Shown here: positions 9,493-59,081 of the stretch, one piece after another
How the letters are laid out: each line of letters begins with the position of its first letter
How positions within the stretch are numbered: position 1 is the stretch's first letter
From: Candidatus Heimdallarchaeota archaeon
Lineage (GTDB): Archaea; Asgardarchaeota; Heimdallarchaeia; Heimdallarchaeales; Heimdallarchaeaceae
DNA length: 64,000 nt
Assembly (NCBI GenBank): GCA_030603365.1
Contig: JAUVXV010000004.1
Coordinates: 64,001-128,000, forward strand
Reading direction: 5' to 3'
Notes under the pieces: generated by a model
Databases searched by the model: none
Told to the model about the DNA's origin: nothing
What the model saw: the letters and a program-made list of their open reading frames with translations, nothing else
Translations under genes and position numbers: made by a program

Positions 9493-9627
9493 TGGTGGGG
9501 CACGACGGATTCGAACCATCGACCAATTGGTCTCTCAGTTTTGACTCTTACAAAAAATATGAGCCAACCGCCTCCTAGTAAGTGGCACGCAACCACTTTA
9601 CTTCTAACCGAGCTGAGCTAGTGCCCC
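9493..9627 (-). tRNA. tRNA with CAT anticodon (probably Ile2, possibly Met), two introns: 9572-9602 (D-arm, 23/24) and 9532-9557 (37/38)
   Basis: Removing both introns gives GGGGCACTAGCTCAGCTCGGTTAGAGCGGTTGGCTCATAACCAATTGGTCGATGGTTCGAATCCGTCGTGCCCCACCA. The 37/38 intron forms a BHB with a CTCA/TGAG central helix. Confidence 0.88.
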
Positions 9628-34058: not shown

Positions 34059-34189
34059 TGGTGGCCGGACCGTGATTTTCAGCGTTTCAGAACGCATCTG
34101 AAACTTTTTGAACACGGGATCACCTGGTGTTTTGCCCTTTTTTTAGAAGGTCCCAAACCAGGGGCCATACCAAGCTAGACCATCCGGCC
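34059..34189 (-). tRNA. tRNA-Pro(TGG) with two introns: 34129-34151 (37/38) and 34076-34106 (T-loop, 59/60)
   Basis: Acceptor GGCCGGA/TCCGGCC. Both introns form BHB motifs (central helices TTTG/CAAA and TTCA/TGAA with 3-nt bulges). Confidence 0.9.
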
Positions 34190-37888: not shown

Positions 37889-37997
37889 GCCTCAATGGTG
37901 TAGCTCGGCCAATCATTGCGGACTTTCACATGCGAAAGTCCGCGTGACTAAACAGGATTATCCGCAGACCCGGGTTCAAATCCCGGTTGAGGCACCA
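37889..37997 (+). tRNA. tRNA-Glu(TTC) with a 31-nt anticodon-loop insertion/intron (~37929-37959)
   Basis: Acceptor GCCTCAA/TTGAGGC; Glu/Asp-type D arm; GCGGA-CTTTCA...A-TCCGC. The BHB is imperfect. Confidence 0.82.
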
Positions 37998-58958: not shown

Positions 58959-59081
58959 GCCCAGATAGCTTAGCTGGGAGAGCGCAGGACTGAAGAAGAA
59001 TCTTTCAGAAATCCTGTTGTCGCGTGTTCAAGAAGGTTTCAGATGCGTTCTGTGACATTGAATATCACGCTCTGGGCTCCA
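58959..59081 (+). tRNA. tRNA-Phe(GAA) with two introns: 58996-59010 (37/38) and 59033-59064 (T-loop, 59/60)
   Basis: Acceptor GCCCAGA/TCTGGGC; BHB central helices CTGA/TCAG and TTCA/TGAA. Confidence 0.9.

Follow-up and report, generated by a model that had tools for sequence, protein, structure and literature searches.

Stereotyped 31-nt bulge-helix-bulge introns, probably mobile, in the tRNA genes of a genus of Heimdallarchaeota

The DNA considered here is a window of 64,000 nucleotides (nt) from a Candidatus Heimdallarchaeota assembly, a metagenome-assembled genome (MAG) of 3.65 Mb that has 33% GC, is 89%-complete and is designated G000 (window, C14:64001-128000). Three tRNA genes in the window, those for tRNA(CAU), tRNA-Pro(UGG) and tRNA-Phe(GAA), each contain two introns and an encoded CCA end (Table 1). 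One intron of each gene lies at the canonical position, 37/38, and the other is at a non-canonical site, in the D-stem of tRNA(CAU) and in the T-loop of the Pro and Phe tRNAs. The tRNA gene structures of the window were parsed by hand from the sequence; removal of both introns from tRNA(CAU) yields a canonical cloverleaf, with a D-arm of GCTC/GAGC and the anticodon loop CTCATAA. A preliminary description of this DNA had reported the non-canonical introns as 31, 31 and 32 nt long, each forming a hairpin, and its coordinates, lengths and hairpins all agree with the hand parse. It was also correct that a single loop, UGCGU, caps differing stems (GTGGT-TGCGT-GCCAC in tRNA(CAU), CAGA-TGCGT-TCTG in both Pro and Phe). 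Relatives were examined in a genus comparison set of 25 genomes, G000 included.

In a strict bulge-helix-bulge (BHB) motif, the exon ends with four helix and two bulge nucleotides, and the intron side consists of one bulge nucleotide, an internal helix, four nucleotides that pair with the exon, and two further bulge nucleotides. Every parsable non-canonical intron in G000 is built in this way, as 1 + 24/25 + 4 + 2 = 31-32 nt. The hairpin (24-25 nt, with 8-10 bp and a 4-6-nt loop) represents the helix that the splicing motif needs within the intron; as every strict BHB motif requires such a helix, it is not in itself the special feature it had been taken for. The 4-nt intron element pairs with four exon nucleotides located two bases upstream of the cut, the bulges are 3 nt, and canonical tRNAs, like the 3' end of 16S rRNA, are recovered if the cut falls behind the second bulge nucleotide. 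In the mature RNAs, canonical D-arms, T-loops and anticodon loops are regained, and intron-less orthologues show exactly the predicted junctions. In the T-loop introns, the T-stem forms the outer helix and the 8-10-bp hairpin the inner one, and the minimum-free-energy structure given by RNAfold for the Pro precursor consists of the T-stem, the 4-bp helix and an 8-bp hairpin. The D-stem intron of tRNA(CAU) has a strong inner helix and, in the hand parse, a weak or absent outer exon helix, making it a relaxed motif. Two-subunit splicing endonucleases accept non-canonical sites, and the two EndA paralogues of G000 (PF01974; 188 and 180 aa, 97.6 and 46 bits) would fit a broad-specificity enzyme of this kind, with a putative assignment of subunits.

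Length does not set the non-canonical introns apart, although this had been supposed. The 37/38 introns of G000 are themselves most often 29-32 nt long (31 in Ile, Glu and the initiator tRNA, iMet; 32 in Asn and Trp; 30 in Pro(GGG); 29 in Asp), the remaining introns span about 13 to 50 nt, and the mini-introns of 16S rRNA are likewise 31 nt long. In the sister genera (G045, G041), the lengths of 37/38 introns are widely spread, at about 14-50 nt, so the 31-nt mode is not family-wide.

The T-loop introns at position 59/60 form a family, F1. The Pro and Phe copies have in common an exact 17-mer with just two occurrences in the 3.65-Mb genome. The F1 core, TTCAGATGCGYTCTGA (at most 1 mismatch), occurs in 30 copies in 20 of the 25 genus genomes, against 2 matches for a reversed-pattern control, and all 30 copies are 59/60 tRNA introns: Phe (16), Pro(UGG) (11), Tyr(GUA) (2; G008, G012) and Ser(GGA) (1; G016). 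All 16 Phe genes found in the genus carry the intron, and the Phe tRNAs of three sister genera have an intact T-loop without it. The Pro(UGG) genes with F1 (11, including that of G000) are matched by 8 genomes where it is cleanly missing, leaving an exact TTCAAAT T-loop. Genomes G008 and G012 have no F1 in Pro and a near-identical copy in Tyr, the T-arm of Tyr is identical to that of Pro, and the relatives G010, G013 and G018 carry the Pro copy; this distribution is read as a relocation. As for the second introns of these genes, the 23-nt 37/38 intron of tRNA-Pro(UGG) is missing from most relatives and the 15-nt one of tRNA-Phe from the remaining Phe genes of the genus. Across the 30 copies, TTCAGA, GCG and TCTG (TTCAGA.GCG.TCTG) are invariant, the linker and distal positions vary freely, and the loop is UGCGU in 20, UGCGC in 9 and CGCGU in 1. 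The exact F1 pattern has 30 matching stretches in 185,579 GTDB species genomes, 27 of them on contigs labelled Heimdallarchaeota or simply archaeon; the 3 bacterial matches are put down to chance, for which a rough expectation is about four. A link to viruses was also considered and rejected, as the 11 exact core matches in IMG/VR have no tRNA context, look coding-like and are regarded as chance.

The D-stem intron of tRNA(CAU), family F2, is present at 31-32 nt in 19/19 genus orthologues found; beyond the genus, BLAST against 22 other genomes of the order gave no match to tRNA(CAU). In the alignment, 91.8% of cells are paired, compared with 25-44% in controls with slid 3' partners; compensatory changes on both sides occur in 7 of the 10 hairpin pairs, and none of 500 shuffles matches the observed covariation. 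Of the five loop columns, 1, 2 and 4 hold U, G and G throughout the 19 sequences, the third takes C or U and the fifth U, A or C, and the loop-closing pair itself covaries (U-A in 8, C-G in 6, U.G in 2). Most relatives have a perfect central helix (GTTA x TAAC, 4/4). In the same genomes, the unpaired 3' tail of F2 has strongly diverged, and the 37/38 intron of tRNA(CAU) has diverged almost completely across the genus and is therefore usable as an internal neutral control. That the loop is invariant over a covarying stem, while the tail and the 37/38 intron have diverged, means that the loop is constrained and that its match to F1 is not a coincidence; with 19 orthologues retaining it, the D-arm member has a place in the class beyond chance, as had been proposed. 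The alignment thus shows purifying selection on a cap at about intron position 12, at least in F2. The strict UGCGU loop of the preliminary description has to be relaxed, however, the actual consensus being U/C-G-C/U-G-N (Y-G-Y-G(N)).

Two further families carry the same cap, so that the proposed class of conserved size and loop holds for F1 and F2 and extends to F3 and F4. F3 is a D-loop intron of the form ATGAGT..CAY-loop-GTG..ACTCAGAGAAA, found in 8 copies in 4 isoacceptors, all of 31 nt. It is at 15/16 in Tyr (G000, G015), Lys(UUU) (G013) and Lys(CUU) (G024), and at 19/20 in Pro(GGG) (G008, G010, G012, G018), and both sites offer GCTY, followed by two nucleotides, as a match to the GAGA of the intron. 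The loop is UGUGU in 4 copies, UGCGA in 3 and CGCGA in 1, with a covarying closing element, CAU/CAC. At 2 mismatches the F3 pattern search gave noise, equal to its reversed control, and only context-checked matches were used. F4 is the 31-nt 37/38 intron of the initiator tRNA, with the loops CGUG (G000), UGCGU (G023) and UGUG (G010, G013, G018), and a different loop in G009. Its arms and TGAA element are like those of F1 (25/31 matches, z = 4-5 against shuffles), its target, CTCA, is one base from the T-loop TTCA, and it is probably related to F1. The contrast that had been drawn with 37/38 introns consequently stands for the three genes of the window (26, 23 and 15 nt, all motif-free) and fails genome-wide, where this initiator intron carries the motif. 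A 31-nt T-loop intron capped by UGUG occurs in Ala(UGC) (C14:139403-139509, -) in G000 only, the 16 genus orthologues being intron-less; it is apparently a recent gain, for which no donor was found. D-loop insertions of unrelated sequence were also seen, in the initiator tRNA of G008 (L264; about 31 nt, boundaries unparsed) and in Pro(GGG) of G005 (L133; 31 nt) and G015 (L138; 39 nt); these are lineage-specific and point to a high turnover of D-loop introns in the genus.

Among genomic hairpins whose stems have at least 7 bp, 0.4% have a loop of the form YGYG(N); among the roughly 12 independent intron hairpins of 29-32 nt in G000, 5-6 do (hand count, RNAfold loops). For 5/12 the binomial P is about 1e-8, before any penalty for a motif chosen post hoc. 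The loop enrichment that had been suggested as a check is therefore seen among the intron hairpins of G000 but not genome-wide, where TGCGT hairpins number 28 observed against 32 expected; the signal is accordingly intron-specific. A generic covariance model of any stem with a YGYG loop would hold about 20 bits of information, too little to tell signal from noise in 150 Mb. Outside tRNAs, two identical 8-bp hairpins, TGTTTTTT-TGCGT-AAAAAGTA, occur 2.7 kb apart at C12:120119 and C12:122790 (+), and are probably a repeated element or terminator-like site.

Table 1. Interrupted tRNA genes of the window, their introns and loops, and central helices (exon x intron) of further introns in G000. Positions are those of the window.
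Feature	Position	Strand	Central helix	Remarks
tRNA(CAU) gene	9493-9627	-		two introns, encoded CCA; hand parse
tRNA(CAU) canonical 37/38 intron, 26 nt	9532-9557	-	CTCA x TGAG, 4/4	motif absent
tRNA(CAU) F2 intron, 31 nt, D-stem 3' strand, 23/24 (between GA and GC)	9572-9602	-	GTTA x TAGG, 3/4 (G000)	1 + 24-nt hairpin + 4 + 2
UGCGU pentaloop capping F2 hairpin	9587-9591	-		19-sequence alignment
tRNA-Pro(UGG) gene	34059-34189	-		two introns, encoded CCA; hand parse, acceptor-stem search
tRNA-Pro(UGG) F1 T-loop intron, 31 nt, 59/60	34076-34106	-	TTCA (54-57) x TGAA, 4/4	bulges AA/A and AA/T
UGCGU pentaloop, F1 hairpin, Pro	34092-34096	-		30-copy alignment
tRNA-Pro(UGG) canonical 37/38 intron, 23 nt	34129-34151	-	TTTG x CAAA, 4/4	
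tRNA-Phe(GAA) gene	58959-59081	+		two introns, encoded CCA; hand parse, acceptor-stem search
tRNA-Phe canonical 37/38 intron, 15 nt	58996-59010	+	CTGA x TCAG, 4/4	
tRNA-Phe F1 T-loop intron, 32 nt, 59/60	59033-59064	+	TTCA x TGAA, 4/4	
UGCGU pentaloop, F1 hairpin, Phe	59044-59048	+		sequence and 30-copy alignment
Ala(UGC) T-loop intron			TTCA x TGAA, 4/4	
Lys(CUU) D-arm intron			AGGT x GCCT, 4/4	
Tyr D-loop intron			GCTC x GAGA, 3/4	
16S rRNA intron before anti-Shine-Dalgarno sequence			TGCG x CGCA, 4/4	

Other features of the same size class occur in G000. At the 3' end of 16S rRNA (C8:10098-11577, -; L222:1455-1575), a 31-nt BHB mini-intron with a TGCG/CGCA helix and a 9-10-bp hairpin lies directly before the anti-Shine-Dalgarno sequence; it is present in G000, G021, G016 and G009, and not in G008, G023, G013, G003 and G004. 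A second 16S site, a few bases upstream (between CCGTA and GGGGAACC), has insertions of 31-35 nt in six further genus genomes. The tRNA-Glu(UUC) gene of the window (37889-37997, +) has a 31-nt 37/38 intron at 37929-37959 without a YGYG cap. The 5' part of this intron, GAAAGTCCGC, is perfectly complementary over 10 bp to the exon anticodon arm GCGGACTTTC, and its canonical central helix is only 3/4. In a permuted 5S region (C14:270860-270900, -) there is a 32-nt insert with an 8-bp hairpin (CATCTGGA-GGCAT-TCCAGATG) followed by TTCGGGAT.

Taken together, these appear from sequence and predicted fold to be real BHB introns on one rigid design, and several families have evidently moved among tRNA genes and positions. 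Similar introns stand in tRNAs of different identity (F1 in Pro, Phe, Tyr and Ser; F3 in Tyr, Lys(UUU), Lys(CUU) and Pro(GGG)), one and the same intron occupies different positions (F3 at 15/16 and 19/20; F4 at 37/38 resembling F1 at 59/60), and presence is polymorphic among relatives (Pro(UGG), 11 with versus 8 without; Ala(UGC), G000 only). The mobility suggested in the preliminary description is borne out by F1, with its four kinds of T-loop, and by F3, in four isoacceptors and two D-loop positions. The most satisfactory explanation, and a fairly probable one, is that the mini-introns are protein-spliced BHB introns forming one stereotyped, mobile class specific to one Heimdallarchaeota genus, with the cap under selection.

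The spread of such introns follows a simple scheme. A match to the host is needed solely at the 4-nt element, and the intron can persist wherever an exon supplies the complement: F1 (TGAA) lies after TTCA in T-loops, its probable relative F4 after CTCA in the CAU anticodon loop, and F3 (GAGA) after GCTC or GCTT in D-loops. As only this element must match, families have moved between tRNA genes and positions, with precise losses in some species. The cap (UGCGU, UGCGC, UGUGU, UGCGA, CGUG), which starts at about intron nucleotide 12 in several families, may nucleate folding or provide a handle for recognition, and so hold the long helix in register. With the register held at the tRNA elbow, a two-subunit endonuclease would meet a clean motif, and excision would release a 31-nt circle.

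A bolder proposal, which has a small chance of being right, is that the capped hairpin serves as the handle for a mobility or processing system not yet described. Either a dedicated factor, or the endonuclease and ligase acting in reverse on the excised circle, would read the cap, set at a constant 10 bp from the cuts, and insert the mini-intron at any RNA or gene with a complementary 4-mer. If true, the closest archaeal relatives of eukaryotes would harbour a mobile element that propagates itself at the RNA level.

Several observations weigh against a single mobile class with a selected cap. The YGYG motif was defined after the data had been seen. Members of the same 31-nt class lack it: the Lys(CUU) D-arm intron has the loop GGUA, the G005 Pro(GGG) D-loop intron has UUGAGG, and the 16S introns at the two polymorphic sites share the architecture without the cap, which is therefore unnecessary for the architecture and, presumably, for splicing. 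The UGCG tetraloop of the Pro(GGG) 37/38 intron, at first sight another instance, is best rejected as chance or drift, since relatives read TGCT, CGTG, TTCG and TGTT. The inner stem of F1 is invariant across copies and, because it never varies, structure cannot be told apart from sequence constraint or recent spread in that family. Finally, in G000 the central helix is only 3/4 in F2, and 2/4 in the iMet 37/38 intron.

Among the alternatives to a mobile class of spliced introns, one would make the excised 31-nt introns functional small circular RNAs whose YGYG loop is bound by a dedicated protein, the tRNA genes being mere expression hosts. The loop conserved over covarying stems, the F1 core invariant beyond the needs of pairing, and the fixed size and loop position would all be expected of such RNAs, and circularisation is a known fate of archaeal introns (Danan 2012, PMC3326292). 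Against this, hosts lose the intron precisely and without replacement in some species (8 genomes in the case of Pro(UGG); iMet), members of the class exist without the loop, no candidate loop-binding protein was found in the analysis, and the public runs listed for the locus include no RNA run. The idea is thus doubtful. It is also rather unlikely that the loop is functionless, F1-F4 deriving from one ancestral mini-intron, or having converged by chance, with a loop that has not yet drifted. All families do have one architecture and length, F4 looks homologous to F1, the UGCG of the Pro(GGG) 37/38 intron drifts freely, and the motif is a post hoc one. What speaks against drift is F2, where loop positions 1, 2 and 4 are invariant over 19 genomes whose F2 tail and sister intron are heavily diverged, and where the closing pair has switched between U-A and C-G beneath these positions; the YGYG background of 0.4% makes chance convergence difficult as well.

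Mimicry of the T-loop has a very low probability. Here the cap (UGCGA/UGCGU, compared with UUCGA/UUCAA) would replace the elbow contact while the real T- or D-loop is occupied, and so help other processing enzymes to handle the precursor. All the capped non-canonical families are indeed at the elbow, in the D-arm, D-loop or T-loop, F1 sequesters the real T-loop nucleotides 54-57 in its central helix, and UGCGA, as read from the sequence, is one position from UUCGA. But most copies end in U and not in the A needed for a reverse-Hoogsteen pair, the UGUGU variants are without the C, the iMet 37/38 member is away from the elbow, and the argument is one of resemblance. The least probable alternative, hardly credible, is a DNA-level hairpin element of the type of REP or IS200/IS605 ends, moved by an HUH (Y1) transposase that recognises the hairpin together with a guide of 4 nt. 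The palindromic hairpin and the 4-nt element, which is complementary to the bases immediately 5' of the insertion, resemble the target recognition of IS608, but no Y1 transposase (PF01797) was found in the 89%-complete G000, the F1 core is within tRNA genes only (30/30 in the genus search, the viral-contig matches being chance), and the splicing motif already accounts for the 4-nt complementarity. Three other candidates were rejected outright: a box C/D guide RNA of the tRNA-Trp type (no RUGAUGA, 31 nt is too short, and Rfam finds only tRNAs in the window); a base-pairing partner of the loop (ACGCA or RYRYR), searched for by eye in Pro(UGG), Phe and tRNA(CAU), where ACGC occurs in the Phe T-stem only; and a K-turn or K-loop (no tandem G.A pairs).

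In Thermoproteales, the transposition of tRNA introns is guided by the BHB requirement (Fujishima 2010, Mol Biol Evol 27:2233; Sugahara 2008; as related in the review PMC4090602). The likeness, as far as that review's account goes, is that spread is allowed since the junction alone must form the splicing motif, and that the endonuclease has two subunits. Given that transposition is established in Thermoproteales and that families are found here, the Heimdallarchaeota genus is a new, unusually clear case of a known process. The lineage differs, being Heimdallarchaeia and not Crenarchaeota, and so, measured against the account in the review, does the construction: one rigid build (1 + 24 + 4 + 2 = 31 nt), a 9-10-bp helix, a Y-G-Y-G(N) cap at a fixed position, and use of the same design in 16S rRNA. 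In the text of PMC4090602 that was searched, no conserved loop motif was found described.

A census of tRNA introns in Asgard archaea (Goswami et al., bioRxiv 10.64898/2026.10.13.758758, Oct 2026) assigns 1.5% of introns to cross-isotype families, puts the median intron length at 22-23 nt, and finds copying between tRNA genes almost undetectable in Asgard lineages. It agrees with the present data in that there are many non-canonical BHB introns of the D-arm and T-arm, repeatedly gained and missed by tools of the tRNAscan type. The Heimdallarchaeota genus differs in having clear cross-isotype families (F1 in 4 isotypes, F3 in 4 isoacceptors). Hairpins, T-loops and described intron families did not turn up when the census text was searched.

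Other comparisons are with more distant systems. The T-loop introns of ARMAN/DPANN archaea (Fujishima 2011, PMC3239211) are likewise at 59/60, with the T-stem as outer helix, T-loop nucleotides in the central helix, and one family in several tRNAs, as in F1. In contrast to F1, they are cut by a three-unit type of endonuclease and no common cap motif has been described for them. The AGNN tetraloop ruler of Rnt1p (yeast RNase III) is similar in that a short loop is conserved and lies a constant helical distance away from cleavage, and may be taken as a functional analogy only; the enzyme families are unrelated, the EndA subunits here are of ordinary size (188, 180 aa), and reading of the loop by a protein would be hypothetical. 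If tRNA introns form circles as reported for archaea (circRNA-seq, PMC3326292) and for metazoan tricRNAs (PMC4536317), BHB cleavage and RtcB ligation would give a 31-nt circle here. The fixed 31-nt build and the conserved loop cap are two features for which no description was found in the literature compared.

The introns have a practical consequence for annotation, as ARAGORN and the Rfam tRNA model missed or mislabelled all three window genes, which were recovered, with others, by an acceptor-stem/CCA search. ARAGORN called tRNA(CAU) Lys in one run and Ser in another, and tRNA-Pro(UGG) was missed by ARAGORN and Rfam alike. At gathering thresholds, Rfam reported five tRNAs only in the window and no match at the introns. 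With introns allowed, ARAGORN labelled the window gene at 9493-9627, tRNA(CAU), as Ser(aga), and elsewhere in the genome Lys(CUU) (C14:344067-344196, -) as Leu(gag), Asn(GUU) (C14:144164-144271, +) as Tyr(ata) and Pro(GGG) (C13:319739-319845, -) as Ala(ggc). With interrupted genes mislabelled in this way, automatic tRNA tallies for the lineage will be wrong. Every tRNA gene parsed in G000 and its relatives has a genomically encoded 3' CCA.

It is still an open question how tRNA genes acquire introns, and the matter has particular weight in Asgard archaea, which stand closest to eukaryotes among the archaea. The genus described here is a clean counter-example to the census, in that two or three families have moved between isoacceptors and positions, and its 25 related genomes hold a record of gains, relocations and precise losses. 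In the rigid 31-nt design, with a 4-nt address element and a cap conserved by selection, it also offers a concrete, testable object.

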